Positions 3,934-63,739 of a stretch of DNA of 64,000 nucleotides are shown here, one piece after another (the first letter of the stretch is position 1; every line of letters starts with the position of its first letter). Both the position numbers and the translations under genes were made by a program. A model generated the notes under the pieces. It saw only the letters and a program-made list of their open reading frames with translations. It had not been told where the DNA came from and did no database searches. The stretch is taken from the IMG/VR virus record IMGVR_UViG_3300045988_183350. One strand, 5' to 3'. Source of the DNA: a virus.

Positions 3934-3967
3934 AAAGGCTTACTTTTCAATTAATCTGTGATATAAT
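3934..3967 (+). promoter_or_regulatory. Conserved early-type promoter (-35-like AGGCTTACTTTT; extended -10 TGTGATATAAT)
   Basis: Motif AAAGGTTTACTTTTA-N-TGnTATAAT recurs about 35 times in the window; this copy precedes CDS 4005. Confidence 0.6.
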
Positions 3968-4004
3968 AATATATAATTATAGATAAAAGTAAGGATATTA
4001 TTTT

Positions 4005-4766
4005 ATGAATTTAGCAGAAAAAGCGAAGAAGCATCATGCGTTGATGGAAAATACAAAGTCAATTTATACTGACGGAACCGTATTAGAATCAACAATTTAT
4101 CTTGAAGATGCTTTTGACAATAAAAAACAATCATATAGAACATTTAATAATGACATTGTTATTGCTGACCTTGATTCTATTTCAGCTGCTTACAAATATG
4201 AAATGACAGGTCGTGTTGCCTTATTGAATTTTGCGTCATTTACCCATCCTGGTGGTGCGTTCTTGTTTGGTAGTCGTGCTCAAGAAGAAGCCATTTGTCA
4301 TGAGTCAAATTTGTTTGAAATTTTAAATGACGATAAATTTAGTTTGTTTTATCGTATCAATCAAAAGGACCTTGGCAATCACTTATATTACAATCGTGGC
4401 ATTTACTCACCAGGAGTTATTTTAACTCGAGATAATGACGAACACTTTACTGACGTTATTACTGTTGCGGCTCCTAATGCGATGAAAGCTTATGATGGCA
4501 CAGATGATTTTGATGTGAGAAATCTTGTTATTTTGAAATCTCGAATTGATTTTATCTTAAAAATTGCAGAAGCAAATCATGTTGACACATTGATTCTTGG
4601 AGCTTTTGGTTGCGGTGTCTTTGGTCAAAGTCCATATGACGTAGCAACTTGTTTTAAAGACCTCTTGCCTCATTATAACTTTAAAAAAGTTGTCTTTGCA
4701 ATTCCTGATTTTAATGATGGCAATTTAGAAGCATTCAAAGAAGTCTTTACAGAAGAAAATAAATAA
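4005..4766 (+). CDS. Macro-domain protein, bacterial-type poly(ADP-ribose) glycohydrolase-like (DUF2263/TIGR02452 family)
   Basis: Signature 'NFASFTHPGGAFLFGSRAQEEAICHESNL' matches the GGG-x6-8-QEE PARG motif; RBS AAGGA 9 nt upstream. Confidence 0.55.
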   Translation: MNLAEKAKKHHALMENTKSIYTDGTVLESTIYLEDAFDNKKQSYRTFNNDIVIADLDSISAAYKYEMTGRVALLNFASFTHPGGAFLFGSRAQEEAICHESNLFEILNDDKFSLFYRINQKDLGNHLYYNRGIYSPGVILTRDNDEHFTDVITVAAPNAMKAYDGTDDFDVRNLVILKSRIDFILKIAEANHVDTLILGAFGCGVFGQSPYDVATCFKDLLPHYNFKKVVFAIPDFNDGNLEAFKEVFTEENK

Positions 4767-4814
4767 GATATAATAATATTGTAATAAATTATTTATCTGA
4801 GAAAGGTTTTAAAT

Positions 4815-5408
4815 ATGGGATTATTTAGTAGTAATCGAAATGTGTTAGGTGGGCCAATCAAACAGCCACCAATCAATAATGGCGGTGATTATTACAGATG
4901 GGACGTTCTTGTTACCAAAGCATTAGATGCTGTTCATGGTCGTAATGTATTTGATGGCATGTCAAAACGCGGTCCTGTTAAAGTAATTATCACTAGTCTT
5001 GTTGGTTTTGAGCAATTTATTGATGAACACAATTTTGTAAACAGTGGCATTAAGAGTGCGCCTAAAGCACCACTTGGTTATACAGATGCGCACATTTCAG
5101 TTTTGCGTGGTCTTCTTGCAAATAAATTGAAAGACCCTTATGTGATTGAGTTTATTGAAAAGAATAGTTTGGATGGTTTTCAAATTATTTATGACAGTGG
5201 CAATCCTGACGAATTTAACGAAGGTCTTGACGATTTGATTCATTCAGTTAGTGTAAACGTAAATAACGTTGTCGCTGATTATGAGAAAATCGCTAAACGC
5301 TTAGCTGTTCGTCATGAAATCGATATGATTGAAGTTGCCAATGAGTTCAACTTGTGGGTTCGTCTGTCAAAAGAGTTTCAAGAAACTTTGAACGCATATA
5401 AAAATTAA
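4815..5408 (+). CDS. Hypothetical protein
   Basis: 197-aa ORF with RBS GAAAGG; no recognisable motif. Confidence 0.5.
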   Translation: MGLFSSNRNVLGGPIKQPPINNGGDYYRWDVLVTKALDAVHGRNVFDGMSKRGPVKVIITSLVGFEQFIDEHNFVNSGIKSAPKAPLGYTDAHISVLRGLLANKLKDPYVIEFIEKNSLDGFQIIYDSGNPDEFNEGLDDLIHSVSVNVNNVVADYEKIAKRLAVRHEIDMIEVANEFNLWVRLSKEFQETLNAYKN

Positions 5409-5428
5409 ATATTTGAAGGGAAAATTAT

Positions 5429-6682
5429 ATGGCAATCCAAGATTTACAAGTAATTAAACGTTCAGGCATGATTGAAGCATTTAATTTGGATAAAATTATC
5501 ACTGCAATCACGAAGGCCGCTGAACATACGTTTAAGCCGATTTCGTCAAATGAACTTTCAGCTGTCATTGATTATATTTATGACAAGTTGGCTGTTTATG
5601 ATGACGAAAACAGTTATGAAATTCCTGTTGACGAAGTTCATGATATTGTAATCAATGCTTTATTTGAAGTTCGCGACGACGTTGCTAAACGTTATGTGTC
5701 TTATCATGAGTTTCAAAATAGTCAAAATAAAGTCTTTGATTCATTAAAAGATTTGATTGACATTTCATCGTCTGTTGATTTGCCAGTTAGCCAAAACAAG
5801 CTTGTTGTCGAACACACAACAGCTAAAGAACTGGCTATGCGTTATTCACTCAGACCTGATTGGCAAAAAGCAATCACAGACGGAATTATTGAAATTCCGA
5901 ACATTGAAACACTTTGGTACAAAACGCGAGAAGTCGGATATATCGACTTTGCTAAAAAATTCACAAACTCTGGAAATGACGGTGTATTTGATAGTGTAAT
6001 GAATTTTACAGTGATGATTGACGCCTTGAAACGCGAAATTTTATCAACGTATAACAATTACACATCAGCACTTGTTATTAACTTAAAAGGTATTTTAGCA
6101 AAATATCTTGAATTGAGCTATTACCGCAATTTAATGCTTGCAAAACAAGTCGCTAACCGAACACTTGATTTTAATGGGTCAACAAAAACATTAACTGAAA
6201 AAATCGCGGTTGAAATGACGTATCAAGAAGTTATTGCGGGTACAAGCCAGGTTTGGGATATTGTTAATATTTGTAAAGACAATCATAACATTGACATTGT
6301 GTTTGCGTCGAGTTCATCCTTCCCGACAATTACCGACACAGAAGCAATTAATAATGAATTGCAAGAAATTTTCGATGCAGCGATTGCGACATTGCATATT
6401 GTTCCAGACGTTTTCTTACCAAGGATTAAATCATTTGGTGTGAACTTAAACACAAAAGTTTTACGTGTGTTAGCAACAGATGACCATGATTATCAGCAAT
6501 CGATTTCGAAATATGGTTATATGGTAAGTGATATTATTGCATCATACGTGAAGACTGCTGGTGTGAATCAGTCGTCAGTAACGGTTAAATTGGATTGTCC
6601 ATCAGACGCGTCTGAATTCAAATCCATTGAAAACGTTATGCATGAGACTGAGCTTGGCAGCAATAGCGTCGTGGTTATCTAA
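5429..6682 (+). CDS. ATP-cone domain protein (N-terminal ATP-cone fused to an unknown ~300-aa domain)
   Basis: N-terminus 'VIKRSGMIEAFNLDKIITAITKAAEH' follows the ATP-cone pattern of NrdR/NrdD; RBS GAAGGG. Confidence 0.5.
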   Translation: MAIQDLQVIKRSGMIEAFNLDKIITAITKAAEHTFKPISSNELSAVIDYIYDKLAVYDDENSYEIPVDEVHDIVINALFEVRDDVAKRYVSYHEFQNSQNKVFDSLKDLIDISSSVDLPVSQNKLVVEHTTAKELAMRYSLRPDWQKAITDGIIEIPNIETLWYKTREVGYIDFAKKFTNSGNDGVFDSVMNFTVMIDALKREILSTYNNYTSALVINLKGILAKYLELSYYRNLMLAKQVANRTLDFNGSTKTLTEKIAVEMTYQEVIAGTSQVWDIVNICKDNHNIDIVFASSSSFPTITDTEAINNELQEIFDAAIATLHIVPDVFLPRIKSFGVNLNTKVLRVLATDDHDYQQSISKYGYMVSDIIASYVKTAGVNQSSVTVKLDCPSDASEFKSIENVMHETELGSNSVVVI

Positions 6683-6687
6683 TAAGT

Positions 6688-6718
6688 AAAAAGACTAGTA
6701 ATTAGTCTTTTTATTTTT
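6688..6718 (+). terminator. Rho-independent terminator
   Basis: Hairpin AAAAGACTAGTAATTAGTCTTTTT followed by a T-run. Confidence 0.6.
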
Positions 6719-6794
6719 CATAATATGGTTCACTATCTTTTGATTTTGTGATATAATTAAATATATATTAAAATTATATTTGAAAGGTTAGGAT

Positions 6795-7583
6795 ATGAAA
6801 TATAAAGATATACAAGAAATTTTTAAAGGTGTTGGTAATGACAAATTGTTTAGTAATCACATTTATTTGATTGCTGAGTGTTTATCATTTTTTGCGTTAC
6901 TTGCCTTTGATAATATATTTTCACGGTTAGTTTTCACGCTCGCTTTGATTGTATTTTCGGTACTTTCGGTGACGAGTTCATTGAATTTTTACTCAGTCAT
7001 GCAATCGGACAAAAGTCAGCAAACTGAAATGCTTAATTTGCTTGACATTAGAGACCGCAATTTTGGATTTGATTTAAACATGGCAAGTTTTATTAAATTA
7101 TTTTTGCTTAAGTGGCTAAACATTCTTGGACGTTCAAGCGTATTCATTGTTATTGCAATTATTATGAGTGTGCTTAAGTTCAGTGCATATTTGTGGGTTC
7201 CATTTAGTTTGTTTTTACTTGCGATTTTGTATTATTGGATAATGTATGGATTTGCAAATTTATTGTTTTATAAAAATCGTAACTCGGATACAAAATTGGC
7301 ATTGTATTTAAAGCAAAGTAAAAATCTGATAAGTACACATTTACGTGACCTGGCAAAAACTTACAGTACAATGATTTTGCCATTTATTGGTGCGTGTCTT
7401 CTTGGTTTTGTATTAATTGTCGTCGGTTACATTATGTTTTTAGGCGAGAATTATAACTTCTTGGTATTGCTTAGCGAATTCATTTGTATCGTACCATTTT
7501 TGATTCGATTCCGCTACTTATTTGTTTATACATTTGACAAACTTTATAAGGAAGGACATAAAGACGATGACAAAAACAATTAA
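6795..7583 (+). CDS. Multi-pass membrane protein
   Basis: Several hydrophobic segments; promoter GGTTCAC..TGTGATATAAT at 6727-6757. Confidence 0.5.
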   Translation: MKYKDIQEIFKGVGNDKLFSNHIYLIAECLSFFALLAFDNIFSRLVFTLALIVFSVLSVTSSLNFYSVMQSDKSQQTEMLNLLDIRDRNFGFDLNMASFIKLFLLKWLNILGRSSVFIVIAIIMSVLKFSAYLWVPFSLFLLAILYYWIMYGFANLLFYKNRNSDTKLALYLKQSKNLISTHLRDLAKTYSTMILPFIGACLLGFVLIVVGYIMFLGENYNFLVLLSEFICIVPFLIRFRYLFVYTFDKLYKEGHKDDDKNN

Positions 7584-8520
7584 AAAGACAATTTCACTTG
7601 CATTATTAAGTGTGACTTTATTAGGTACAGCAGGTCCAGCCTTGGCAGACGAAAAGACAGACGTACAAAATCAGATTACGACAATTAACCAAGAGTTAAC
7701 TGATACAACAACTAAAATTTCAGAGTTGCTTGGTAAAATTGGTGACAATGAGGCGGCAATAAAAGATAATGAGGCTAAAATTAAAAGTATTCGCGAGACA
7801 TTAAACAGTCAAGCGAGAGCTATGCAGACAGATTCAGAGCCAACAAATCTTTTCACGCTTTTATTGCAAGCTAAATCTTTATCAGATATTTTTGACATTT
7901 TTAATTCAAGTTCGACCATTGCATCTGCAAATGATGAAAATATTACAAAGATGAATACTTTGATTAAAGAAAATAAAGCCAAACAAGAAAGTTTGACAAA
8001 AGAATTAAATGACTTGCAAAAATCGCAACAAGACCTTGAAAAGTCGAATACTGATTTGCAAAATAAATTACAATCGATTAATGACGCGGAGGCAAAAGCT
8101 AAAGCTGAACAGCAAGTAAAAGCTAACATGCAAAATGCAAAATCTGTTTCAACCGTAGTTGCTCAAACAACAGGTGGTGGTAATTTGCCTAGTCAAGCAA
8201 GCGGTACAAAACAGTTTGCACCTAGTCAAGCTAGGGAAGCTTTCGAGCAAATCACACAAGATTATGGCGTCACGGGTTATGAGAAGCAAATATGGGAACA
8301 AATTATTACAGCTGAATCAGGCTGGAACACGACTGTTTGGAATGGCGGTGGTTCAGGAGCCTATGGTTTAGGTCAAGCATTACCGGCTGACAAGATGGCG
8401 GTTTATGGGTCTGACTACATGACAAATCCATACACACAATTGGTTTGGATGTACAATTATGTTCGCGAGCGTTACGGTAGTTTTGCTGGCGTTCAATGGG
8501 AATCCCGTGGATGGTATTAA
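7567..8520 (+). CDS. Secreted coiled-coil protein with C-terminal lytic-transglycosylase (SLT)-like domain
   Basis: Signal peptide MTKTIKKTISLALLSVTLLGTAGPALA; heptad-rich middle; C-terminus 'AESGWN...AYGLGQA' resembles the SLT ES/GLMQ motifs; start chosen at the Met after RBS AAGGAAGGA (track ORF begins at 7522). Confidence 0.5.
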   Translation: MTKTIKKTISLALLSVTLLGTAGPALADEKTDVQNQITTINQELTDTTTKISELLGKIGDNEAAIKDNEAKIKSIRETLNSQARAMQTDSEPTNLFTLLLQAKSLSDIFDIFNSSSTIASANDENITKMNTLIKENKAKQESLTKELNDLQKSQQDLEKSNTDLQNKLQSINDAEAKAKAEQQVKANMQNAKSVSTVVAQTTGGGNLPSQASGTKQFAPSQAREAFEQITQDYGVTGYEKQIWEQIITAESGWNTTVWNGGGSGAYGLGQALPADKMAVYGSDYMTNPYTQLVWMYNYVRERYGSFAGVQWESRGWY

Positions 8521-8551: not shown

Positions 8552-8925
8552 TATGGGATTGTGATTAAAATATTATTATTTTCTTTTAAGTGCGTACGTG
8601 TGTTATAAATGGCACGGCTTAGTTTTTGGTTGTGCTCGATATGGCTTTCGTGCAAAATATGGCGGTAATCGCCAATAATAATAAGTGTATCACGGAGTGT
8701 TTTAAGCTCGTCTTCGATATACTCAGTTGTGTTATTTGTCACCCACTGAGTTTCGAGAGGTTCGTCAAATTTATCTTTAATAATAAGAGCATTAAAGTAT
8801 AGACGTGACGGGTCGATAAAAACGATTTTTGACACTTGAGTACTTTTATCGGCAATTAAATGCAATAGTCGGGTTTGTGTGGTTGGTGAGAGCTCAAACA
8901 AACGTTGTTTCTTCTGTGGTTTCAT
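8551..8925 (-). CDS. Hypothetical protein
   Basis: 124-aa ORF; RBS AAGGAG 10 nt upstream; overlaps the upstream gene by 32 nt. Confidence 0.4.
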   Translation of the reverse strand: MKPQKKQRLFELSPTTQTRLLHLIADKSTQVSKIVFIDPSRLYFNALIIKDKFDEPLETQWVTNNTTEYIEDELKTLRDTLIIIGDYRHILHESHIEHNQKLSRAIYNTRTHLKENNNILITIP

Positions 8926-9379
8926 TTAAAAAATCTCCTTTGAAATTATAAATAGTTGCACTTGTCAAATTAGGTTCCTCATTTACTAAAGTCAAACGAA
9001 TCCAATCATTTAGTGTAAGAACTTCTTTTTCATTACAAATCATGGATTGTACGTTATCTGTAAAACTAAATTCAGACCTTAAGTCGTTGTAAACGTCACT
9101 AACATTGACAACTTCGGTTTCGTAAGCATCGATTTCGACAATACAACAGTCCTTATGAAATGACATTTGAGCAAAATCATAGGCAACGTCGTATGATTGT
9201 GAAAAGCTTTTATTTTTAACAAAAAGTTTATCACCGTCAGTTTCGATAACGTCAAAACCTCTATATATCGGTGTTTCGTTTACTGTGACATATTCGGCAA
9301 GCTCGTCAATATAGTATGTATTGTTATAAGCTACGTGGTCAATAAGCCAGCGATAAAGCTTTTCTTTTGCTGTTGACAT
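8894..9379 (-). CDS. Hypothetical protein
   Basis: 161-aa ORF; minus-strand promoter ACGTTTACTTTTA..TGATATAAT in 9405-9457; RBS AAGGAGAC. Confidence 0.45.
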   Translation of the reverse strand: MSTAKEKLYRWLIDHVAYNNTYYIDELAEYVTVNETPIYRGFDVIETDGDKLFVKNKSFSQSYDVAYDFAQMSFHKDCCIVEIDAYETEVVNVSDVYNDLRSEFSFTDNVQSMICNEKEVLTLNDWIRLTLVNEEPNLTSATIYNFKGDFLNETTEETTFV

Positions 9380-9467
9380 GAAAGATAAGTCTCCTTAATT
9401 TAACAAAGTTTAATATATAATTTTATTATATCATAAATCAAATAAAAGTAAACGTAATTTAAGCAAA

Positions 9468-9512
9468 AAACGGTTTACTTTTATTAATTTTATGATATAA
9501 TTAATTATATCA
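9468..9512 (+). promoter_or_regulatory. Conserved promoter (ACGGTTTACTTTTA ... TTATGATATAAT), divergent from the minus-strand promoter at 9405-9457
   Basis: Direct motif match. Confidence 0.6.
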
Positions 9513-9539: not shown

Positions 9540-9758
9540 ATGGCCGATAAATTAATGTCTCGCCGAATGGCATCTCACTATTTGGGCACATCAAAACGCT
9601 ACTTGAAAGCTTTAACACAGGTTGGACGAATGTTTCCTGAAAAGTCGTTTCCTGAACGCTGGTCTAAACAAGACTTAGACCGTTACAAACAGGAAATTGG
9701 TCGTGACATCACGCCTGACCTTGAAGCATCACTAATTCGTAGTGCAAAATCGCGTTAA
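9540..9758 (+). CDS. Small basic protein, possible DNA-binding regulator
   Basis: 72-aa ORF with RBS AAGGAG; Lys/Arg-rich. Confidence 0.4.
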   Translation: MADKLMSRRMASHYLGTSKRYLKALTQVGRMFPEKSFPERWSKQDLDRYKQEIGRDITPDLEASLIRSAKSR

Positions 9759-10009
9759 AACCATTTACAAAATGACAATTACGCGATATAATAAAATTAC
9801 TAAAATTAAAAATTAAGAAAACGTAACATATAGTTCTTTTGATTTATTTTTTTAGTTAATCTTAACAACTTAAAGCCGCTTGGTTTTCAACTAGGTGGCT
9901 TTTTCACGTTACGACTATATTACAAAATTTAAAATTTTATATGCAATTCTAATAATTCGTGTTATAATAATATTATAGACTAAAAAAACTTATACAAAAG
10001 GAAGATTCG

Positions 10010-11110
10010 ATGATACATAAACGATTAAAAGGTAAAATTTTATATAGTTCAGTAATCTTAGGTGTAGCTTTATTTTCAGGAGTTTCGCCTGTAACAGCAT
10101 TAGCTGATGACAATAATTCTGTGAAAATTGACAAAATTATTTCAAGTTCACAAGATATTGACAAGTCGTCAGAGCAATCTTTGAATGCGTCAATTACAAA
10201 ATTGCAAAACTCAATTTCAGATTTGGAGTCTGAAAACAAGCAATTGCAATCTGAGGTTGACAAATTAGCTAAAGATTTGGACAAATTGACAAAAGATATT
10301 ATTGCTCGTAACAAGCAATTAGAGTCACAGGCTGTTGACATGCAAACGTCTACAGGTTCAGATGGCATTATTGGAGCATTGACGTCTTCAAAATCAATTT
10401 CAGATGCAATTTCAAAATTGACAGCTATGGGAACAATCTCGTCTGCAAATGACAATGCCATTAAAGATTTGAAAAAACAAAAGACTGAATTAGAGAAGAA
10501 ACAAAAGGAAAATCAGGCTAAAATCAATGAGATTGTGGAAAACACACAAAAATTGAATGAGGCTAAAGCAAATTTAGACGTAGCTAAACTTGAATTGCAA
10601 GCGAAACAAGAAGAAGCTCGAAAAGCTGACGAAGCTAAAAAAGCTGAAACGGCAAAAGCTTTGAAAGCGGCTGAAAGTAAAGCCGATTCTGTGAAAAATG
10701 CAACAAGTAATCTCGAAGCGCGAAGCAATGAGGCTGTACAACCAGGTGAGGGTAATTTCACGCCTAATTACTCAGGTAATACTTATCCAGCTGGCCAATG
10801 TACTTGGGGCGTGAAATCACTACTTCCTTGGGTTGGTAATTACTGGGGTAATGCAAACCAATGGGGAGCAAGTGCACAAGCTGAAGGACACACTATCGGA
10901 AATACGCCTAAGGTTGGAGCTATTGCCGTTTGGCCTGAGGATGGCGGTGGCTATGGACACGTCGCCGTAGTTTCAAAAGTAAACAGTGCAACGTCTATTG
11001 AAGTATTAGAGTCAAACTATGCAGGTAATATGTCAATCGGTAATTACCGTGGCACATTTAATCCGCAAGCTGTTTGGTCTGGAAGTTCAGTATATTATAT
11101 TTATCAATAA
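10010..11110 (+). CDS. Secreted coiled-coil peptidoglycan hydrolase with C-terminal CHAP domain (PcsB-like)
   Basis: Signal peptide; long heptad/coiled-coil region; C-terminal 'GQCTWGVK...GYGHVAVV' places the Cys/His CHAP catalytic pair. Confidence 0.65.
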   Translation: MIHKRLKGKILYSSVILGVALFSGVSPVTALADDNNSVKIDKIISSSQDIDKSSEQSLNASITKLQNSISDLESENKQLQSEVDKLAKDLDKLTKDIIARNKQLESQAVDMQTSTGSDGIIGALTSSKSISDAISKLTAMGTISSANDNAIKDLKKQKTELEKKQKENQAKINEIVENTQKLNEAKANLDVAKLELQAKQEEARKADEAKKAETAKALKAAESKADSVKNATSNLEARSNEAVQPGEGNFTPNYSGNTYPAGQCTWGVKSLLPWVGNYWGNANQWGASAQAEGHTIGNTPKVGAIAVWPEDGGGYGHVAVVSKVNSATSIEVLESNYAGNMSIGNYRGTFNPQAVWSGSSVYYIYQ

Positions 11111-56324: not shown

Positions 56325-56339
56325 GAAAGGAAAATACCG

Positions 56340-56660: not shown

Positions 56661-56678
56661 GAAAGGAGACTAAAAACA

Positions 56679-56963: not shown

Positions 56964-56978
56964 GAAAGGAAATAAAAA

Positions 56979-57335
56979 ATGTTTGAGATTATTAAATGGT
57001 TTATGCTAATAGCCCTGCTTATTGCAATGGCTAAAGCTTCAGAAACCTTAGAAACCTTGGAAAACTTAGGACTTTTAACAAGCGATGTTTTATATGATAA
57101 TATATTAGTACTTAGTGCCTTGTTTAATTTCTTTTTATTGATTATTACAGGACTTGTGTTTGTCCTTACGTTATCATCAGGTTTTCCGTCAGTATTTTCA
57201 AATATAATGACAGTTATTATTATTGTTGAATTTATGTATCTGTTATTTGTTTATGGCAAAGTAATTCCAGGCTACAAAGGTCTTATAGCAGAGCGTTCAA
57301 CTAATAAAACTAAAGAAACCATTAAGATTAATTAA
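56979..57335 (+). CDS. Array member (118 aa; C-terminus ...KETIKIN)
   Basis: Paralog of 57355-57696. Confidence 0.55.
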   Translation: MFEIIKWFMLIALLIAMAKASETLETLENLGLLTSDVLYDNILVLSALFNFFLLIITGLVFVLTLSSGFPSVFSNIMTVIIIVEFMYLLFVYGKVIPGYKGLIAERSTNKTKETIKIN

Positions 57336-57354
57336 AAAAAGGGGGGCTAAAAAA

Positions 57355-57696
57355 ATGTTTGAACTTACTAAATTGTTTATGTTAGCTGCCTTGATGATTT
57401 GTATGGTCAGAGCTTCTGATAATTTGACCGAACTAGATAATGACTCTTTGCATTCATGGGTAACTGCTGGTATTGCCTTTATTGATTTTTTTGTAGTATT
57501 AATTACAGGGTTGATACTTGTCATTACAGCATCGTCAAATGATTTTCCGCAGGAGTTTTCAGCTATAATGACAATTGCTATCACTGTTGAATTTGTTTAT
57601 ATGTTATTTGTTTATGGTAAAGTAATTCCAGACTATGAAGGCTCTAAAGTAACGCATCCAATTAATAAAAATAAAGAAATAATTAAAATTGATTAA
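57355..57696 (+). CDS. Array member (113 aa; C-terminus ...KEIIKID)
   Basis: Paralog of 56979-57335. Confidence 0.55.
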   Translation: MFELTKLFMLAALMICMVRASDNLTELDNDSLHSWVTAGIAFIDFFVVLITGLILVITASSNDFPQEFSAIMTIAITVEFVYMLFVYGKVIPDYEGSKVTHPINKNKEIIKID

Positions 57697-57709
57697 AGGA
57701 AATTAAAAT

Positions 57710-58075
57710 ATGATGGCTTGGTTATATTGGATAATTCCTGTGATATTTGAAATTGGTTTAATATCATTAAGCATATATCTTGGATATGTGTTTAAAGTTC
57801 GATGCAATTATACAAAATTTGAAATGTATAATAAAATAGCTGAGTTTATGCTTGTACATACTGTTTATGTGTTTGCGACTATAACGATAACATTTATTTG
57901 TCAAGCAGTTGATACAATTTTTAAAGGTCAAATTGGTTTAATTATATTACCATTTATTATCGCAATTATATTCGGATTCATTTCATTTAATTGGATAAAT
58001 GTTAATTTTATTGAAATTAATGAAGAACTTGGGCGAGTGCATCGCCGAAAACTTCGTAAAGAAATTAAAATTTGA
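57710..58075 (+). CDS. Array member (121 aa; C-terminus ...RKEIKI)
   Basis: TM-rich. Confidence 0.55.
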   Translation: MMAWLYWIIPVIFEIGLISLSIYLGYVFKVRCNYTKFEMYNKIAEFMLVHTVYVFATITITFICQAVDTIFKGQIGLIILPFIIAIIFGFISFNWINVNFIEINEELGRVHRRKLRKEIKI

Positions 58076-58087
58076 AAAGGAGGCTAA

Positions 58088-58450
58088 ATGACTAATTTTA
58101 ATCAATATTTATCACTAATATTAGCAATTTTAACAGTTACAATTACTTCATTATACTTTATTAATAAGATACGCCAACTTGTAACTAGTTATAATTTTAA
58201 ATTCAACTGGAATGATAACTTTGTATCAGCATTATGCGATATATTATTTTATAGTGGATTAGCATTAGTAGTTGATGGTTATATATTTATTCAAAAAATT
58301 GAAACCTTTTCAGTGGATATAAGTCTTATACTTATTGTATTGCTTACATTATTATTTCATGTTTGGATAGTATATATCTGTAAATATGAAATTGATTTAT
58401 ATATCGATATGGCATTATATAATTTACAAAATAAATCAATTAAACTTTAA
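58088..58450 (+). CDS. Array member (120 aa; C-terminus ...NKSIKL)
   Basis: TM-rich. Confidence 0.55.
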   Translation: MTNFNQYLSLILAILTVTITSLYFINKIRQLVTSYNFKFNWNDNFVSALCDILFYSGLALVVDGYIFIQKIETFSVDISLILIVLLTLLFHVWIVYICKYEIDLYIDMALYNLQNKSIKL

Positions 58451-58465
58451 AAGGAGAACAAAAAT

Positions 58466-58813
58466 ATGTATGAAATTATAAATTGGATAATTTTTGGATT
58501 ATTCACTACAACACTTATTGCTTACAGTGCATATGCACTTAATTGTTTACTTAAAACCGAGACAGATTTTTTAGGCATGTACTTAGTATTATTTTTCATT
58601 ATGAATGTGATATGTTTATCAGCTATTACATTGTTGTCAACACACGTTAAACCCGAACAATTAAATCCGACTACATTGCTGGGTACATTTGTACTAGATA
58701 CGATTATATTATCAATGGCTATTGTAGCTTATCATGATGACATAGTTAGTGACTACAATTGGCAACAAAACCAACATAAAGACTATATTAAACAAAAAAC
58801 TATTAAACTTTAA
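58466..58813 (+). CDS. Array member (115 aa; C-terminus ...KQKTIKL)
   Basis: TM-rich. Confidence 0.55.
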   Translation: MYEIINWIIFGLFTTTLIAYSAYALNCLLKTETDFLGMYLVLFFIMNVICLSAITLLSTHVKPEQLNPTTLLGTFVLDTIILSMAIVAYHDDIVSDYNWQQNQHKDYIKQKTIKL

Positions 58814-58829
58814 AAGGAAAAATTAAATT

Positions 58830-59201
58830 ATGGCTGATATAATTTTTTGGATAATTATTGGATTACTACTAGTTAGTGATATTTCCGATAATGGATATAT
58901 CCTTTATAGAGCTTATAAATCACAAATACATAAGCATATATTCGAATATGGTTTCATTATGTTTACTTTATTAGCGTCAAGTTTAATAACATTGCTTTGT
59001 ATTGCCTTAGTGACACTCATTGGAAGTATCGTAACGGTGAATTTTGGTATTGCTACAGGCCTTATTGTTAATGCTTTGCTTGGTCTTTTGGCTATCTTTT
59101 GTATCATTAAAATGCGACATTATTTGTTTATTAGTGATTGGATAGCCGATGAGGAAAGGTATTTAAAATATAAAAACATGCGAAAACATATTAAATTTTG
59201 A
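58830..59201 (+). CDS. Array member (123 aa; C-terminus ...MRKHIKF)
   Basis: TM-rich. Confidence 0.55.
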   Translation: MADIIFWIIIGLLLVSDISDNGYILYRAYKSQIHKHIFEYGFIMFTLLASSLITLLCIALVTLIGSIVTVNFGIATGLIVNALLGLLAIFCIIKMRHYLFISDWIADEERYLKYKNMRKHIKF

Positions 59202-59213
59202 AAGGAGTTTTAA

Positions 59214-59591
59214 ATGATGGAAACATTTACAAAATGGTTTTATCTGATAGGGTCAATTATATCAGCAATTAGTATATTAACATACTTTTTGTATAAGGCA
59301 AAAACACTTAGTCCAAACGGTAAATCAGAAAGAGAATCCGTGGAATTTTATTGGTCACTATTCAGATTAGTCGTATTTCATATTCTTAGTATAATTGTGG
59401 GCATTTTAATGGTTCGCGAGCATAATCATAATAATGTAAATTTGAGTACTGATATTACGTTTTCAGGTTTAATTTTGATTTTCTTCATTACGACTGTAGC
59501 TTTGTCGCGCTTTGAAATTATTGATGATTATATTAAAAATATAACTGAAATTAAACAAAATCAACTTATGCGACAATCAATTAAAATCTGA
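59214..59591 (+). CDS. Array member (125 aa; C-terminus ...MRQSIKI)
   Basis: TM-rich. Confidence 0.55.
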   Translation: MMETFTKWFYLIGSIISAISILTYFLYKAKTLSPNGKSERESVEFYWSLFRLVVFHILSIIVGILMVREHNHNNVNLSTDITFSGLILIFFITTVALSRFEIIDDYIKNITEIKQNQLMRQSIKI

Positions 59592-59603
59592 GAGGAGTCT
59601 TAA

Positions 59604-59945
59604 ATGATTTTTAATATTATAAATTGGATAATTAGTAGCTTAGTTATATTTGCTATTATAATAAATGTTATATATACGCTTGTATATTTATATAAAATTA
59701 ATTATAGCCATACATTTGATTTTACCGACTTTTTCATAGGAAATTCTTTAAGTGTTTTTGGTTGTACCGTAAATGTATTTCTTGCTGAGCCTAATAATAT
59801 GCCACAGTTATTCGTAGCTATAATATTCAACGTAGCCTTCCTTGCACTTCCATATATTTATAGTTATGATAAGGTTTATAGTAAGTATGAAAGACAATTA
59901 AAACGATTAAAGCAAAATAAATTAAATAAAACAATTAAAATTTAA
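59604..59945 (+). CDS. Array member (113 aa; C-terminus ...LNKTIKI)
   Basis: TM-rich. Confidence 0.55.
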   Translation: MIFNIINWIISSLVIFAIIINVIYTLVYLYKINYSHTFDFTDFFIGNSLSVFGCTVNVFLAEPNNMPQLFVAIIFNVAFLALPYIYSYDKVYSKYERQLKRLKQNKLNKTIKI

Positions 59946-59959
59946 AGGAGACTTGATTA

Positions 59960-60313
59960 ATGAACACATTTTTAAATTATATTCCAGGTATCATACCTGT
60001 AGTCACGGCTGTTATTGTAATTGTTTTACATATTAAAACAAGTAAACATAACTTTGCCTTTGAAAATCAAAAGTTAAAGGTAAATGTTAATTCAAAATGG
60101 TCAATTCAATGGTTTGATTTTGCAATTATCGCTTTACATCTGACATTTATTACATTTATGAATATGTACTTTTTAGCTGGCCAGCATGATGACATTATTT
60201 TGTCAGTATTGATAAACGGATTTACTCTTTTCCTTATTGATATACAAAATCTTGTCTTTGAAATTGACATGAGTAATGATGTCATGGCCCGTATGAAAAC
60301 AATTAAAATTTAA
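59960..60313 (+). CDS. Array member (117 aa; C-terminus ...RMKTIKI)
   Basis: TM-rich. Confidence 0.55.
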   Translation: MNTFLNYIPGIIPVVTAVIVIVLHIKTSKHNFAFENQKLKVNVNSKWSIQWFDFAIIALHLTFITFMNMYFLAGQHDDIILSVLINGFTLFLIDIQNLVFEIDMSNDVMARMKTIKI

Positions 60314-60327
60314 AGGATACTTAAGTT

Positions 60328-60696
60328 ATGAACACGATTTTATCAATACTTGCAAATATAAGTATATTAGCCGTTGCATATGCTGTTCCAAAAGTAATTT
60401 TATATTGTTATGCAAGGAAATATAATACAACAGCGGAAATATTACTTAATTATTGTTCAGATTTTAAGTTTTCGATTAAATCAGTCAATATGCTTATAAT
60501 TATTTTGGCAATCAACTGTTTAATATCACCTGCAATTGGTATTGCCGCTGGCGAGGCATTTAATGATATGTTATTCGCTTCTGCTGTTTGTAATTTAGGA
60601 CTAATTATTACATTAGGAAGTTTATTTTTAGCATATGGTATATTATACATTGGTAACGCAAGCAAAAAATTGCCTAAACGGCGAATTAAAATTTAA
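60328..60696 (+). CDS. Array member (122 aa; C-terminus ...PKRRIKI)
   Basis: Paralog of 61952-62323 (shared ILAxxYxxxxVILxxxARKxxTT). Confidence 0.55.
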   Translation: MNTILSILANISILAVAYAVPKVILYCYARKYNTTAEILLNYCSDFKFSIKSVNMLIIILAINCLISPAIGIAAGEAFNDMLFASAVCNLGLIITLGSLFLAYGILYIGNASKKLPKRRIKI

Positions 60697-60709
60697 AGGA
60701 ACATAAGCC

Positions 60710-61123
60710 ATGATTACATTTTTAACAACCCTTAGTTGTATAGCGGCTGAAATATTTGTTTATATTGGTTTGTTTATTTTAGCATATAAAATTCCAAGAC
60801 TATACTTAAGTCGTTATGCAAAAAAACATGATATAACATTAAATGAGCTACTTAATGAAAATGACCTTTTTGGCAATTTATCTTATAATCTTAATTGTTT
60901 AGACGGATTTTTGATTTTAATATTCGTAGCCAATGTGATGACACTTTTTGCAACATTAGATGGCTTTTCACTTAGTGAAATTTTAGCAGGCCTAGTGCTC
61001 TATGATTCAGGTGTATTAATTATTATGGCAATTGGATTTTTCGCTGATTTAAATGACTGTCTTAAATATATCAGTGACCACCTATATAAACAATTTGTTG
61101 AACACCAACCAATTAAAATTTAA
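60710..61123 (+). CDS. Array member (137 aa; C-terminus ...HQPIKI)
   Basis: TM-rich. Confidence 0.55.
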   Translation: MITFLTTLSCIAAEIFVYIGLFILAYKIPRLYLSRYAKKHDITLNELLNENDLFGNLSYNLNCLDGFLILIFVANVMTLFATLDGFSLSEILAGLVLYDSGVLIIMAIGFFADLNDCLKYISDHLYKQFVEHQPIKI

Positions 61124-61139
61124 GAAAGGAATTTAAATT

Positions 61140-61532
61140 ATGAATATATCTTTACTAACATTCGCTGTAATATCAATTACCTGTATGGTTGCAATGGGAT
61201 ATATAATCCCATATATTGTTCTTGGATTTTATGCAATAAAGCGAAATACAACCGTAAAATCATTACATTCATTAATCAAAAAATATGCTAATGTATTTGA
61301 TTCATTTGGGGTATCAAAAGCTGAAGGTTGGGGCTGTGGAATTTTTGGAATGTTATTATATTTCTTATTTCCACTGATGTCAGTTGAGCTATCTTATAAT
61401 GATAAAATAACTCTTTTTATCATATATCTAACAATCTTGTTTGGCGCTTTATTATATATAAATATTGCATTGATTAATTCCAGTATTGATATTATTGATA
61501 AAAAATTGTCTGAACAATCCATTAAAATTTAA
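61140..61532 (+). CDS. Array member (130 aa; C-terminus ...EQSIKI)
   Basis: TM-rich. Confidence 0.55.
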   Translation: MNISLLTFAVISITCMVAMGYIIPYIVLGFYAIKRNTTVKSLHSLIKKYANVFDSFGVSKAEGWGCGIFGMLLYFLFPLMSVELSYNDKITLFIIYLTILFGALLYINIALINSSIDIIDKKLSEQSIKI

Positions 61533-61543
61533 AGGAGTAAATT

Positions 61544-61948
61544 ATGAACGTATTACTTGTTGTTATACCTTTATTAAGTATTGGTATTACAATTTATTGG
61601 AGTATAATTGCCAGTCAGGAATTTCGCAAACCGCTTGAAGCTTATTTTGAAAAATCTTTAAAAAATTCAAAATCATTTCGTAAAAAGTTTTATAAAACAT
61701 TTCCCGATATTGATTGGCCAATGATGCTAACAATGGCAGCTATGGTAATTATAGGCGACATTTTTACAATTGTTGTTTTTTATGACAACCTTGTAGAGGC
61801 TTTAATTTGTATGTTAGGATTTAATGTGATTGCCTTAAGTCTGAACTCTTTAATGATGCGTTTTTATATAGGCGGTGCCTATTTCGCGGTTAATCAATTT
61901 GAATATAACGATAAAAAGAAAATTAAGGTCAATTCGGGAGATAATTAA
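61544..61948 (+). CDS. Array member (134 aa; C-terminus ...KKKIKVNSGDN, motif followed by a short extension)
   Basis: TM-rich. Confidence 0.5.
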   Translation: MNVLLVVIPLLSIGITIYWSIIASQEFRKPLEAYFEKSLKNSKSFRKKFYKTFPDIDWPMMLTMAAMVIIGDIFTIVVFYDNLVEALICMLGFNVIALSLNSLMMRFYIGGAYFAVNQFEYNDKKKIKVNSGDN

Positions 61949-61951
61949 CGT

Positions 61952-62323
61952 ATGATTACATTTTTATTAATACTTGCTGATATTAGTATTTTAGCCATTG
62001 CATATATAAGATTTCAAGTGATTTTACATAATCTTGCACGAAAACACGGTACGACAGTACCAACATTGCTTAATAGTTGTTCAAATTTATCAGCTATTTA
62101 TGACGATAAAAATAAAATGCTTATTATGTCAATAGTTTCCAAAGTAGCTGTAAGTTTATCAGCTTTATCACAACATTATGGTCTTACTGATGCTCTGATA
62201 GGTTTTATAATCCTTGATTTAATATTAATTATTATTGATTATTATGCCGGTGAAGACGTTGATGGATTTTATGTTAAGACAAACGATGAAATTAAATTAC
62301 GCAAACGGCACATTAAACTTTAA
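61952..62323 (+). CDS. Array member (123 aa; C-terminus ...RKRHIKL)
   Basis: Paralog of 60328-60696. Confidence 0.55.
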   Translation: MITFLLILADISILAIAYIRFQVILHNLARKHGTTVPTLLNSCSNLSAIYDDKNKMLIMSIVSKVAVSLSALSQHYGLTDALIGFIILDLILIIIDYYAGEDVDGFYVKTNDEIKLRKRHIKL

Positions 62324-62339
62324 GAAAGGAAATTAAGTT

Positions 62340-62714
62340 ATGGATATACTCTTGATATTACTTATAAATATTATTGCTTTTGCAATACCATATATTTTTA
62401 TTTTTATAGTATCAAAGCATTTTGCAAATAAAAACAATATACCGTTTAAAACTGTACTAAATTTTAATGACTATGTAAAAAATACAATCGGTGGAACTAC
62501 CATATTTCAAATTGTTGTTCTTATAATTGATTTGCTTATATTCTTTTATGTGGGTGGAAATAATGATTATTCGACAACTGAAGTTTTAATTATGGTTACT
62601 TGTACTAATTTAATGCTTTTTGCACCAGCAGCATCACTAACAACGTTAGACTCAATTCGCGAAGATATGAGCAACATTAAAAAAACATTGCCTAATAAGT
62701 CGATTAAATTTTAA
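62340..62714 (+). CDS. Array member (124 aa; C-terminus ...PNKSIKF)
   Basis: TM-rich. Confidence 0.55.
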   Translation: MDILLILLINIIAFAIPYIFIFIVSKHFANKNNIPFKTVLNFNDYVKNTIGGTTIFQIVVLIIDLLIFFYVGGNNDYSTTEVLIMVTCTNLMLFAPAASLTTLDSIREDMSNIKKTLPNKSIKF

Positions 62715-62720
62715 ATAAAA

Positions 62721-62782
62721 GGTTTACTTTTATTTAAAACATGATATAATAAGAGTATAAATAAAGAAATGAGGACTTTTAT
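62721..62782 (+). promoter_or_regulatory. Conserved promoter-leader cassette (GGTTTACTTTTA..CATGATATAAT + AAATAAAGAAATGAGGA)
   Basis: Direct motif match. Confidence 0.6.
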
Positions 62783-63016
62783 ATGGTTATTTTAACAATT
62801 ATTACAATTATTATTGCACTTCTTGCACAACTTGTATTTGACATTAAAGTCATTGATTTTATGTTCAAACATGTTGGCTTGCTTATTGGTGTAGGTGTTG
62901 CTGTGATTTTGCTTCGTGTATTATTTATGGTTTTGCCTGCTCTTATGTCTCTTTTACTTAGTGTTGTCATCGCCATTGTGCTTACAAACCTAGTTGTAAA
63001 AATTATTACAAAGTAG
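62783..63016 (+). CDS. Small membrane protein (77 aa; C-terminus ...VKIITK)
   Basis: Two TM segments; follows the promoter-leader cassette. Confidence 0.5.
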   Translation: MVILTIITIIIALLAQLVFDIKVIDFMFKHVGLLIGVGVAVILLRVLFMVLPALMSLLLSVVIAIVLTNLVVKIITK

Positions 63017-63028
63017 GGGGCCGTTATT

Positions 63029-63397
63029 ATGGGATATGTTGGTGGTAACATAGTATCATTATTTATAGTTTTAGCACTTTTATTTTTAGTAACAATTTCA
63101 GCATATGCTGATGATATGACGCATCCAAAAAACCTTACATTAAAGGATTATATTTGTAAACTATCAAAGGCATTGGCAGTGCTACTGCTTGCGAATTTTC
63201 TTTTAGCAGGTCTGATAACTACCTTTAATGACTTGTGCGGTAATTTCCCAGTGGATTCATTCAGTGAGTATTTAAATCATATGATTTGGCCATTCAGTTA
63301 TTTAGCCGTGGCCCTTTGTATTGTAATTATTCATATTATTATTGCTCATACGAAAAAACAACCAAAATCCAAGACCATTAAAATTGAGGCTGACTAA
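63029..63397 (+). CDS. Array-type small membrane protein (122 aa; C-terminus ...KSKTIKIEAD)
   Basis: RBS GGGGG; TM-rich. Confidence 0.5.
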   Translation: MGYVGGNIVSLFIVLALLFLVTISAYADDMTHPKNLTLKDYICKLSKALAVLLLANFLLAGLITTFNDLCGNFPVDSFSEYLNHMIWPFSYLAVALCIVIIHIIIAHTKKQPKSKTIKIEAD

Positions 63398-63398
63398 T

Positions 63399-63629
63399 AT
63401 GTTATATTTTGCTTATATTGTATTTACAATTTATTTGATTGCAATATTTCCATATGTTGAACAAAGTTCAAAATTTAAATTTTTTATGAATTTACTGTTA
63501 CTTTTGGTAATACCGATAATCTTATTAATTGTATTTTGGTCGGTTATTTTTGTGACAAGTATTGCCGTTATGTACATTTATATTTTCGGTCGCGAATTTA
63601 TAGACGATATTAAAACCGAAAATCAATAA
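63399..63629 (+). CDS. Small membrane protein (76 aa)
   Basis: Start MLYFAYIVF (an internal Met of track ORF 63342-63629 chosen to avoid overlap); two TM segments. Confidence 0.4.
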   Translation: MLYFAYIVFTIYLIAIFPYVEQSSKFKFFMNLLLLLVIPIILLIVFWSVIFVTSIAVMYIYIFGREFIDDIKTENQ

Positions 63630-63655
63630 TACCTCTATATAGAGGTATTTTTTTT
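63628..63655 (+). terminator. Rho-independent terminator ending the membrane-protein array
   Basis: AATACCTCTATATAGAGGTATTTTTTTT. Confidence 0.7.
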
Positions 63656-63678
63656 ATAACCTTTTATTTACATAAAAA

Positions 63679-63739
63679 GGTTTACTTTTATTTTATATGC
63701 GGTATAATAAAGGTATAAATAAAGAAATGAGGTTAACAC
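63679..63739 (+). promoter_or_regulatory. Conserved promoter-leader cassette
   Basis: GGTTTACTTTTATTTTATATGCGGTATAAT + AAATAAAGAAATGAGG. Confidence 0.6.

Follow-up and report, generated by a model that had tools for sequence, protein, structure and literature searches.

We analysed a 64,000-nucleotide stretch of DNA (IMG/VR virus record IMGVR_UViG_3300045988_183350; hereafter the window) in which 37 copies of one near-uniform promoter, nine of them continued into a common leader and ribosome-binding site, lie between genes and point at them. On the sequence data we consider it reasonably probable that this standard primary-sigma-type promoter-leader is a portable cassette of an element of the Inocle kind, and that the -35 word of the promoter is a protein-binding site in its own right which is reused in a phased, origin-like array. 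Inocles, described in 2025, have been reported in most human mouths and are lost in culture (PMC12340149).

To catalogue the promoters, a two-block weight matrix (a -35 block and a -10 block with a variable spacer) was built from 29 clear copies, and both strands were scanned. At score thresholds of 18-20 the scan returned 36-40 positions, versus 0-0.2 in locally shuffled sequence, and with overlaps merged at a score of at least 19 the window holds 37 promoter sites, 30 on the plus and 7 on the minus strand (Table 1). The 12-mer GGTTTACTTTTA, with one mismatch or none, occurs 25 times against 1.1 expected, and a regular-expression listing of the window displayed the complete two-box arrangement. 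An earlier note on this DNA, made from the letters alone, had listed the motif at 33 coordinates, all of which are among the 37 sites; the four that it lacked are 9754-9792, 12299-12337 and 47938-47975 on the plus strand and 40408-40446 on the minus strand.

The sites are positioned as promoters should be. All 37 are intergenic and co-oriented with the next feature on their own strand, and none falls within a coding sequence or tRNA, features that together cover 77% of the window (chance ~2e-24); the earlier note had named an equal frequency of the motif inside genes as the observation that would speak against promoters. From the predicted transcription start to the start codon the distance is 24-43 nt for most sites, and to single tRNAs it is 13-26 nt. 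The same note's statement that a copy precedes almost every gene and tRNA was too strong, since 33 of the 101 features have their own copy directly upstream, rising to 33 of 44 among those with an upstream gap of at least 60 bp. Its remark that several single tRNAs have a copy of their own is borne out (sites 15193, 16355, 16528, 16808 and 18826). Features without a copy sit in operons; no copy lies within the 13-tRNA block or among the ~25 consecutive small genes at 55192-62714. Because the copies occur only between genes, are aimed at the next gene or tRNA and often come right after a terminator, the element, as read from its sequence, is cut into many short transcription units by promoters often directly preceded by terminator hairpins.

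The general layout of the promoter is T-tract/A-tract/GG-TTTACT(TTTA), 16-17 nt, TRTGnTATAAT. The -10 hexamer TATAAT is present at 36-37 of the 37 sites and is extended by a TG whose G is found in 36/37, with a T three bases ahead of that G in 30/37, giving the context T(G/A)TGn; TRTG is the "-16 region" of Gram-positive promoters. The spacer between TTTACT and the -10 hexamer is 16 nt at 25 sites and 17 nt at 12. The bases of TTTAC are each kept at 32-37 of the 37 sites, and TTTACT matches the canonical TTGACA at four of six positions; TTGAC, the sigma-A optimum, is absent from all 37 window sites and from 58 sites in relatives. GG stands just upstream of the -35 element at 31-33 sites, A occupies the six positions 4-9 nt before TTTAC in 22-33 and T the positions 12-14 nt before it in 22-27. 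By the sequence criterion this T-tract and A5-6 tract resemble an UP element, the consensus of which they match. At the putative -1/+1 positions T is found at 25 sites and A at 29, the A lying 7 nt past the hexamer, and this conserved T-A dinucleotide should be the expected, predicted transcription start. Judged by these bases, each copy looks like a complete primary-sigma-type promoter with an extended -10 element and a partly canonical -35 hexamer.

Variation is concentrated in the -35 region, where GGCTTAC (five sites), GGTTCAC (two sites) and C/A-ATTTAC occur. A third G (AAAGGGTTTAC) marks eight sites, all within 12.3-20.4 kb: six of them (15193-18826) precede tRNAs or other unassigned sequence of the RNA region, the remaining two (12299 and 20399) have the next promoter ~90 nt further on, and at none of the eight does a start codon stand at the usual 24-43 nt. 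The promoter word is also a partial palindrome (AAAAG-GTTTA-CTTTT), the right half of which is lost in the tRNA promoters.

Several stretches downstream of standard promoters (17013-17460, 12338-12414, 15089-15192 and 20437-20523) hold neither a coding sequence nor a known RNA (no match in Rfam), the largest being 442 nt before tRNA-Lys. Folding of the stretches between tandem promoters (15096-15200, 20444-20530, 12345-12420 and 47983-48130) revealed no significant structure. The HU-family gene at 12518-12796 (+; 114 bits) is preceded by two tandem standard promoters. In the gap ahead of the mutanase gene lies a tRNA-like fragment (12832-12875, +; T-arm GGTTCGATTCC and acceptor-like flanks), and beside it, near 12999, a decayed promoter word (AAAAGGTTTAT) without a correctly spaced -10.

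In nine cases the promoter runs into a leader of 26-30 nt with the common pattern (A/T)ATAAAT-AAAGAAATGAGG-N7-9-ATG. The leader core AGAAAnGAGG (AGAAAUGAGG) would form a 5+4 bp duplex with CCUCCUUUCU, the 3' tail of Firmicute 16S rRNA, with one internal mismatch. The calculated energy of the AGAAAUGAGG duplex, -9.7 kcal/mol, falls between that of GAGG alone (-5.6) and that of a perfect match (-16.3). The mismatched base is the T that makes an in-leader ATG, and in relatives the triplet varies among ATG, ACG, AAG, TTG and GTG. Genes inside operons carry a related ribosome-binding site, AGAAAGG(A). By its pairing, the leader core is most simply a split, extended Shine-Dalgarno sequence and the in-leader ATG a by-product of the mismatch. 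In-frame in-leader ATGs do occur at 27548 and 39709, as the earlier note had described; its suggestion that they serve as alternative starts was rejected, given that the ATG falls within the stretch of Shine-Dalgarno pairing, shares the reading frame of the gene in just 2/9 cassettes and lacks a ribosome-binding site of its own, and that its T is often replaced in relatives.

The nine promoter-plus-leader cassettes stand where the earlier note had placed them but are not identical, as it had called them: over the 75 nt before the start codon their pairwise identity is 68-92% (mean 79%), whereas the coding sequences that they drive average 56% over their first 75 nt. The three most similar cassettes precede unrelated genes (for a PARP-like protein, a helicase and a protein of no known function), and gene duplication as the sole cause of cassette likeness was rejected because of this. 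Neighbouring cassettes have spacers in common, TTTTATTTT in plus-strand and TTTTAAA in minus-strand copies of the window and TTTATTTAAAAGATGG in several copies of relatives L033-L035, a pattern that points to local duplication or gene conversion on top of selection. Terminator hairpins accompany at least eight of the 37 promoters, ending 15-31 nt before the -35 element at no fewer than seven and ~66 nt before it at one more, so that the order in these units is terminator, promoter, leader, gene; the remaining promoters lack such a hairpin. The relatives L033, L034 and L035 differ by one gene, for a protein of 242 or 311 aa, between identical cassettes, and the two genes are paralogous.

Relatives of the window were reached through homologues of its primase (48% identical in L033/L034, 44% in L035 and 38% in L037) and through the array pattern described below (L059 and L065). 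In five relatives the weight matrix finds 58 further sites with a score of at least 19, none of them in an open reading frame and 46 with GGTTTACT. The same promoter is present in all fetched relative loci, as is the same type of leader; outside such motifs these loci show no DNA-level alignment to the window. The 22-base pattern AAGGTTTACTTTTA-N9-10-TGNTATAAT has nine copies in the window, and in 596 Gb of reference genomes (185,579 species) it gave 15 unrelated single matches, none in Streptococcus.

Other features recur or differ among these relatives. A ~230-nt element that forms a long hairpin with a few compensatory changes and has no Rfam match lies at 39763-39989 (-) and 48618-48847 (+), in both places just upstream of a standard promoter; in four relatives (Table 1) it stands directly before a ribosome-binding site and ATG, in the manner of a 5' untranslated region. 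Genes for TnpB of the IS605 type (Cas12f-like) are inserted at differing places in relatives (L082 10344-11633; L034 630-2249 and 18466-19863; L035 2179-3798), one of them between the helix-turn-helix gene and primase no. 1. At L059 12127-12597 a protein with two repeats like the T7 gp5.9 RecBCD inhibitor is encoded.

The -35 word is not confined to promoters. The 11-mer AAAAGGTTTAC has 25 exact copies in the window, 15 in arrays and 10 in promoters, with none elsewhere; the earlier note's observation that it recurs as an iteron thus holds, the 15 copies lying in 21-bp arrays at 1775-2109 and 3436-3749. In the arrays, AAAAGGTTTAC(TTT) follows a strict 21-bp period without a -10 box at promoter distance. 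The units form two near-duplicate modules, sets of 4+5 and 3+5 facing away from gaps of 165 bp with ~25% GC, within a non-coding stretch of ~3 kb and ~25% GC (1033-4004) directly 3' of primase-helicase gene no. 1, which in L082 is preceded by a Cro/C1-type helix-turn-helix gene. The same stretch contains ~40 copies of TTCCAATGT or TTCTAATGT in both orientations, the TTCTAATGT variant at 2250-2550. As in iteron origins, repeats at about two helical turns, an AT-rich gap and an adjoining D5-type primase-helicase gene are found together, and the stretch 1033-4004 is probably an origin. A second module of the same design, with other repeat words, comprises a helix-turn-helix gene (40109), a primase gene (40443) and repeats at 42150-44620. 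This latter stretch is repeat-rich and non-coding, directly 3' of primase-helicase no. 2, and contains, besides a 143-bp tandem repeat (42222-42516), numerous GCGCACA/GTGCACA and TACTGGTA words; in all likelihood it serves as another origin, with iterons of its own.

Comparison with relatives separates two kinds of repeat. L059, L060, L065 and L083 have five copies of AAAAGGTTTACTTT at spacings of 31, 42, 41 and 21 bp, still in helical phase, and in the fetched sequence of L059 and L065 these units lie 3' of the homologue of primase no. 1. The other abundant word there is CTTTAAGCAG, versus TTCCAATGT in the window. The two primase-1 proteins, of the window lineage and of a relative, are 57% identical overall and by eye least alike in the C-terminal part. 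From this we infer that the variable repeat word goes with the primase, and that the constant 14-mer would be recognised by something conserved across the family. Since the recogniser of the 14-mer would also sit at a fixed distance from the -10 element in every promoter, the transcription machinery or a partner protein of it is implied, and the candidates are sigma region 4 with the alpha subunit, of the host or of the element, or a protein working with them. The occurrence of the 11-mer both in promoters and in phased origin-like arrays keeps open the idea of a dedicated factor. Candidate DNA binders encoded in the window are the HU-like protein (12518-12796), a possible architectural or regulatory protein for the phased arrays, the Cro-type helix-turn-helix protein (40109-40351) and the primase-helicases.

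Two metagenome matches to the array stand apart. L058 was discarded, the pattern there being a coding heptapeptide repeat (RDRKPFD). At the end of the 4.2-kb contig L068 (1-151), 150 bp of the 11-mer array, 88% identical to window 1735-1864, are joined to genes for RuvB and an M18 aminopeptidase from the chromosome of a low-GC bacterium; L068 is a probable assembly chimera, the alternative being an integration junction.

The earlier note had taken the DNA to belong probably to a large lytic phage, its promoters being typical of early or host-takeover regions. Several traits would suit a phage: the strong, uniform promoters, the numerous tRNAs, a GOLLD RNA, D5-type primases, genes like those for PARP, PARG and RNA repair, and the gp5.9-like inhibitor in a relative. 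However, no capsid, portal, terminase or tail family was matched by 20 window proteins against PHROGs or by ~70 against Pfam, in a window that is ~17% of the element. Near-identity searches of phage (INPHARED) and plasmid (PLSDB) collections found no relative; at the protein level, the primase matched nothing in phage and plasmid collections beyond primases of Streptococcus phages and plasmids, at most 30% identical; and IMG/VR, scanned for the promoter and array patterns and with the primase, yielded chance singletons or nothing. The published relatives are, moreover, cell-associated, carry VirB4/VirD4 and were judged plasmid-like (PMC12340149). We therefore regard a lytic phage as quite improbable.

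The element fits the published description of Inocles better, as far as 64 kb without the InoC gene can tell. Inocles of oral Streptococcus are 245-395 kb long with ~32% GC and carry Streptococcus-like cell-wall genes, insertion sequence (IS) elements, tRNAs and a single-copy marker gene, InoC, which encodes ~454 aa with the replication-relaxation domain PF13814; they are absent from isolates (PMC12340149). The window has 33.4% GC and 21-22 tRNAs. It matches parts of two larger contigs, the 371-kb QWCT01000008.1 at 93-95% identity and the 264-kb ODIA01000003.1 at 91%; in the protein database its primase family is found in metagenomes only, on contigs of up to 428 kb. It encodes two D5/DUF5906 primase-helicases, PARG-like and PARP-like proteins, an NrdD-like ATP-cone protein and NrdI, together with the cell-envelope proteins FtsE, FtsX, three PcsB/CHAP proteins, a choline-binding alpha-1,3-glucanase, an LPXTG protein and a flotillin; just past the window follow a dextranase of glycoside hydrolase family 66, a collagen-binding LPXTG adhesin and NrdD. 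The likeness to Inocles (PMC12340149) lies in the GC content (~32-33%), the relatives on 264-428-kb contigs, the tRNAs, the LPXTG protein, PcsB/CHAP proteins, choline-binding mutanase and FtsEX, the IS605/TnpB genes of relatives, and the lack of family members among isolate genomes or in phage and plasmid databases. InoC was not matched among the scanned window proteins or fetched flanks, and VirB4/VirD4 are not in the window, which covers 64 kb of a ~370-kb element.

How such cassettes might work can be outlined. They would be read by RNA polymerase with host sigma-A or with the sigma-70-family factor reported for Inocles, and the leader core AGAAAnGAGG would pair with the 16S rRNA 3' tail. 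As portable expression signals, like the promoter-early stem-loops (PeSLs) of T4-type phages, the cassettes may have spread and been kept alike through local duplication, recombination and selection. AAAAGGTTTACT(TT) would be a family-specific protein-binding word in its own right; it is invariant where sigma-A would prefer TTGACA and forms helically phased arrays without -10 boxes. Its binder would be conserved across the family and thus distinct from that part of the primase whose specificity varies; candidates are a regulator, a sigma encoded by the element, or the portion of the polymerase that makes the -35/alpha contacts. More specifically, and only tentatively, AAAAGGTTTACT(TT) may be bound by one element-encoded protein, sigma-like or an initiator/regulator, at the -35 position of essentially every promoter and at the arrays.

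Three other accounts of the -35 word partly overlap with one another, because they differ only in who contacts it. Host sigma-A alone, without any element-specific factor, might read promoters made very strong and constitutive by their UP element, near-consensus -35 and extended -10, the arrays being phased A/T tracts that bend origin DNA and the word being alike by descent or chance; we hold this to be possible but doubtful. TRTGnTATAAT and the T-tract/A-tract match the Gram-positive -16 region and UP consensus, an extended -10 makes the -35 element less critical, and no sigma gene was seen in the sequence searched, all of which would suit the host factor; yet its optimum TTGAC is never used in the window or in relatives, the upstream GG is conserved, and the arrays keep the full 11-14-mer and not just A/T tracts where the surrounding sequence has changed in relatives. 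Such invariance of a non-canonical -35 word, at a fixed distance from the -10 element and across deeply diverged relatives, is what would be expected if an element-encoded sigma, or an activator that replaces the -35 contact like MotA/AsiA of T4, read GGTTTACT as the element's own transcription channel, and Inocles have been reported to carry a sigma-70-family protein annotated RpoS and to yield transcripts in saliva (PMC12340149). This is nevertheless rather unlikely: Pfam scans of the window proteins and the tblastn search of related sequence described below found no sigma-70-family gene, the -35 element has its normal place and four of six canonical bases, unlike a MotA box at -30, and sigma-A should be able to use a perfect extended -10 as it stands. 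Alternatively, the word could be the operator of a global repressor that also binds a centromere or origin, in the manner of KorB of RK2, omega of pSM19035, p6 of phi29 or an SF3 initiator such as the T antigen of simian virus 40, quieting ~200 promoters and coupling them to replication or partition. The partial palindrome, the recurrence of the word 3' of the primase-helicase gene in phased arrays whose two inverted sets flank 165 bp of AT-rich DNA, and nearby candidate binders (a Cro/C1-type helix-turn-helix protein before each primase gene and the HU-like protein 12518-12796) are consistent with a repressor, but the strict 16-17 nt to the -10 element is the need of a -35 element and not of an operator, tRNA promoters have lost the palindrome's right half, and no ParA/ParB genes were seen beside the arrays, so we consider it unlikely.

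That the copies are not promoters at all but small mobile or recombination repeats, resembling repetitive extragenic palindromic (REP) sequences or miniature inverted-repeat transposable elements (MITEs), is very improbable indeed. They are dispersed, intergenic and alike over 40-75 nt, as such repeats would be, but they are aimed at the next gene at the distances given above, their conservation is concentrated on the -35, TG, -10 and Shine-Dalgarno elements with variable spacers between, and they have no terminal inverted repeats or target duplications.

Returning to the portable cassette with a separately bound -35 word, several observations weigh against it. Part of the uniformity of the cassettes is recent duplication or gene conversion and not selection on every base. 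The insertions and deletions in L033-L035 involve paralogous genes, which ordinary unequal crossing-over would explain equally well. The arrays could act through DNA curvature instead of a specific binding protein, and GC skew, calculated across the origin-like region with short flanking sequences taken from relatives, was uninformative and does not confirm an origin. Finally, tblastn with E. coli sigma-70 regions 2, 3 and 4 found nothing in ~284 kb of related, partly redundant sequence.

Uniform promoters and promoter/terminator cassettes are already known from phages, as are iterons beside a primase-helicase gene from satellites and P4. The closest parallel to the cassettes is the PeSL of T4-type phages, a near-identical terminator-plus-promoter cassette flanking single, often unrelated genes, with differences in gene content between relatives bounded by cassettes (PMC2839356, PMC4122927). 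Likewise, at least eight promoters here abut a terminator, and L033, L034 and L035 differ by cassette-bounded single genes, although these are paralogues and unequal crossing-over would fit as well. Unlike the PeSL, the cassette does not come from a T4-type phage, continues through a standard leader to the ribosome-binding site, and has a family-specific -35 word that is reused in arrays, while recombination at the cassettes is inferred. The early promoters of T5, T7 (A1-A3) and SPO1 are read by the host sigma, have -35 elements of the TTGACA/TTGCT type and are confined to early regions. They too are many near-identical, A/T-tract-flanked, near-consensus promoters clustered on one replicon, whereas here the -35 element is TTTACT and the promoters also serve tRNA, cell-wall and replication genes over at least 64 kb and in all relatives. 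In T4 middle promoters, which are also contained in T4 origins, a MotA box centred at -30 replaces the -35 element. A replicon-specific word in place of the canonical -35 with the sigma-70-type -10 kept is common to both, but the word here lies at the normal -35 distance (16-17 nt from the -10) and is 4/6 canonical; no MotA or AsiA homologue was found here.

The origins of Staphylococcus aureus pathogenicity islands (SaPIs), phage-inducible chromosomal islands (PICIs) and phage P4 have iterons 3' of the primase/helicase gene. The window resembles them in its repeat-rich non-coding region directly 3' of a D5/P4-type primase-helicase, with two sets around an AT-rich gap, a module that occurs twice (58-4004 and 40109-44620), each time with its own repeat words. 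It differs in that one repeat word is the -35 word of all promoters and stays constant while the primase-associated word changes; we know of no such sharing of a promoter -35 word and an origin repeat for SaPI or P4. KorB of RK2, omega of pSM19035, p6 of phi29 and the T antigen of simian virus 40 (SV40) are global regulators that also act at a centromere or origin. One DNA word at many promoters and at a maintenance locus is the shared trait, but their words are operators at variable positions and not the -35 element itself, and the promoters here are far more numerous (37 in 64 kb). A literature search for the motif returned only unrelated primers. We found no report of one stereotyped promoter across a family of giant plasmid-like elements, of its conservation while proteins diverged to 38-48% identity, or of a promoter -35 word reused in phased origin-like arrays; the word "promoter" has no occurrence in the Inocle paper (PMC12340149).

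The promoter-leader cassette offers an annotation route for the transcription units of Inocle-type elements, a sequence signature for finding them (9 exact matches in 64 kb versus 15 singles in 596 Gb) and a concrete experimental handle, and hints at the way in which foreign genes are taken up and rearranged by such elements. Should a separate protein bind the -35 word, the element would have a private transcription programme tied to its origin, which could help explain host burden and instability. If AAAAGGTTTACT(TT) is indeed bound by one element protein, transcription of the whole element would be coupled to replication or copy number through one DNA word, a bacterial counterpart of the logic of SV40 T antigen or adeno-associated virus Rep, with ~200 promoters on a ~370-kb element.

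Table 1. Promoter sites, arrays and associated features (window positions unless a relative is named; scores are weight-matrix scores; CDS, coding sequence; ORF, open reading frame; HTH, helix-turn-helix)
Feature	Position	Strand	Context	Score
Promoter, variant GGCTTAC	3929-3967	+	31 nt before PARG-like CDS 4005	26.5
Promoter, variant GGTTCAC	6719-6757	+	before CDS 6795	23.1
Promoter	9425-9462	-	before CDS 8894-9379; back to back with 9464	36.0
Promoter	9464-9501	+	before CDS 9540	41.8
Weaker promoter (CATTTAC)	9754-9792	+	211-nt leader with terminator-like hairpin, then PcsB-like CDS 10010	19.3
Promoter	11135-11172	+	before PcsB-like CDS 11208	32.1
GGG-type promoter	12299-12337	+	~90 nt, then next promoter; possible small RNA	30.4
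Promoter	12415-12452	+	before HU-like CDS 12518	36.1
Promoter (-10 TATTAT)	15051-15088	+	~110 nt before next promoter	31.3
GGG-type promoter	15193-15230	+	26 nt before tRNA-Met 15263	37.1
GGG-type promoter	16355-16392	+	13 nt before tRNA-Ser 16412	47.0
GGG-type promoter	16528-16566	+	21 nt before tRNA-Asn 16594, then tRNA-Met 16703	39.5
GGG-type promoter	16808-16846	+	13 nt before tRNA-Met 16866	34.2
GGG-type promoter	16974-17012	+	442-nt unassigned stretch, then 13-tRNA block 17461-18801	33.8
GGG-type promoter	18826-18863	+	before tRNA-Asp 18891, GOLLD RNA, tRNA-Gln, tRNA-Cys	44.4
GGG-type promoter	20399-20436	+	~90 nt, then next promoter	38.9
Promoter	20524-20561	+	before LPXTG protein CDS 20606	37.7
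Promoter (GGCTTAC)	23208-23246	+	before CDS 23277	26.5
Promoter (CATTTAC)	24698-24735	+	before ftsE/ftsX-like genes 24771-26401; abutting terminator hairpin 24678-24705	23.4
Promoter + standard leader + ATG	26433-26506	+	PARP-like CDS 26504; terminator 18 nt upstream	42.5
Promoter + standard leader + ATG	27503-27577	+	helicase CDS 27575; in-frame leader ATG 27548	41.4
Promoter + standard leader + ATG	28923-28995	+	CDS 28993	46.3
Promoter	30151-30188	+	before CDS 30232	34.2
Promoter + leader + ATG	34896-34966	-	CDS 34320-34898	40.4
Promoter + leader + ATG	36442-36515	-	CDS 35689-36444	41.1
Promoter + leader + ATG	37275-37348	-	CDS 36555-37277	42.9
Promoter + leader + ATG	39692-39765	-	CDS 38951-39694; in-frame leader ATG 39709	41.9
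Promoter (GGCTTAC)	40035-40073	+	before Cro/C1-type HTH gene 40109 and primase-helicase 40443	27.5
Promoter-like site, function doubtful	40408-40446	-	antisense to HTH-primase junction	24.4
Promoter	47058-47095	-	before CDS 46346-46999; -35 word is a perfect palindrome with 47082 (+)	36.1
Promoter	47082-47119	+	before phosphoesterase CDS 47158	37.7
Promoter (GGCTTAC)	47938-47975	+	247 nt before HIRAN-domain CDS 48229	25.7
Promoter	48843-48881	+	before 60-aa ORF 48915	41.5
Promoter (GGTTCAC)	50484-50521	+	before CDS 50558	25.5
Promoter (GGCTTAC)	53544-53582	+	before CDS 53632; last promoter ahead of ~25 small genes	28.1
Promoter + leader + ATG	62713-62785	+	77-aa membrane ORF 62783	37.9
Promoter + leader + ATG	63671-63742	+	ATG 63740; CDS runs off window, 446 aa in L093	45.1
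D5/DUF5906 primase-helicase gene no. 1, 3' part	58-1032	+	603 aa in relative L082; arrays directly 3'	
Array, 4 AAAAGGTTTAC units, 21-bp period	1775-1848	-	no -10 boxes	
Array, 5 units (4 exact, 1 mismatched), 21-bp period	2000-2109	+	direct units from 2015; inverted unit 2000-2010	
Second-copy array, 3 units, 21-bp period	3436-3488	-		
Second-copy array, 5 units	3640-3749	+	direct units from 3655; inverted unit 3640-3650	
~230-nt hairpin element	L059 6656-6872		relative	
~230-nt hairpin element	L060 822-1048		relative	
~230-nt hairpin element	L065 1353-1579		relative	
~230-nt hairpin element	L083 773-999		relative	

Further features of the window were noted beside the promoters. In the RNA region, a GOLLD RNA (RF02032) lies at 19391-19848 (+; 165.7 bits, above the gathering score of 150; E = 1e-44) between tRNA-Asp and tRNA-Gln/tRNA-Cys, with tRNA-Tyr (19460-19536) embedded in it, and its true 5' end may be at ~18970. 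An extra tRNA-like gene at 18463-18539 (+; 36 bits in Rfam) was missed by ARAGORN, and a small membrane open reading frame lies inside the tRNA block at ~18114-18290. A coding sequence for a Gly/His-rich repeat protein (15388-16350, +), built of 15-nt and 30-nt repeats of the GGGH type and without a Pfam match, begins 49 nt after tRNA-Met, apparently in the same transcription unit.

Among the protein-coding genes, FtsE/FtsX (24771-26401) and PcsB-like coiled-coil/CHAP hydrolases (7567-8520, 10010-11110 and 11208-12269) amount to the streptococcal cell-division hydrolase system on an extrachromosomal element. A microbial PARG-like protein (4005-4766) and a protein with a weak PARP catalytic domain (26504-27478) suggest erasing and writing of ADP-ribosylation. 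At 55192-63397 (+), ~25 tandem genes for small membrane proteins of 94-137 aa follow one another 3-19 nt apart, with no Pfam matches and a copy number that varies among relatives; almost all of the proteins end in ...IKI, IKL or IKF, because the junction ATTAAAnTTTAAGAAAGGA, which combines the stop codon and an extended ribosome-binding site, is conserved at the DNA level.

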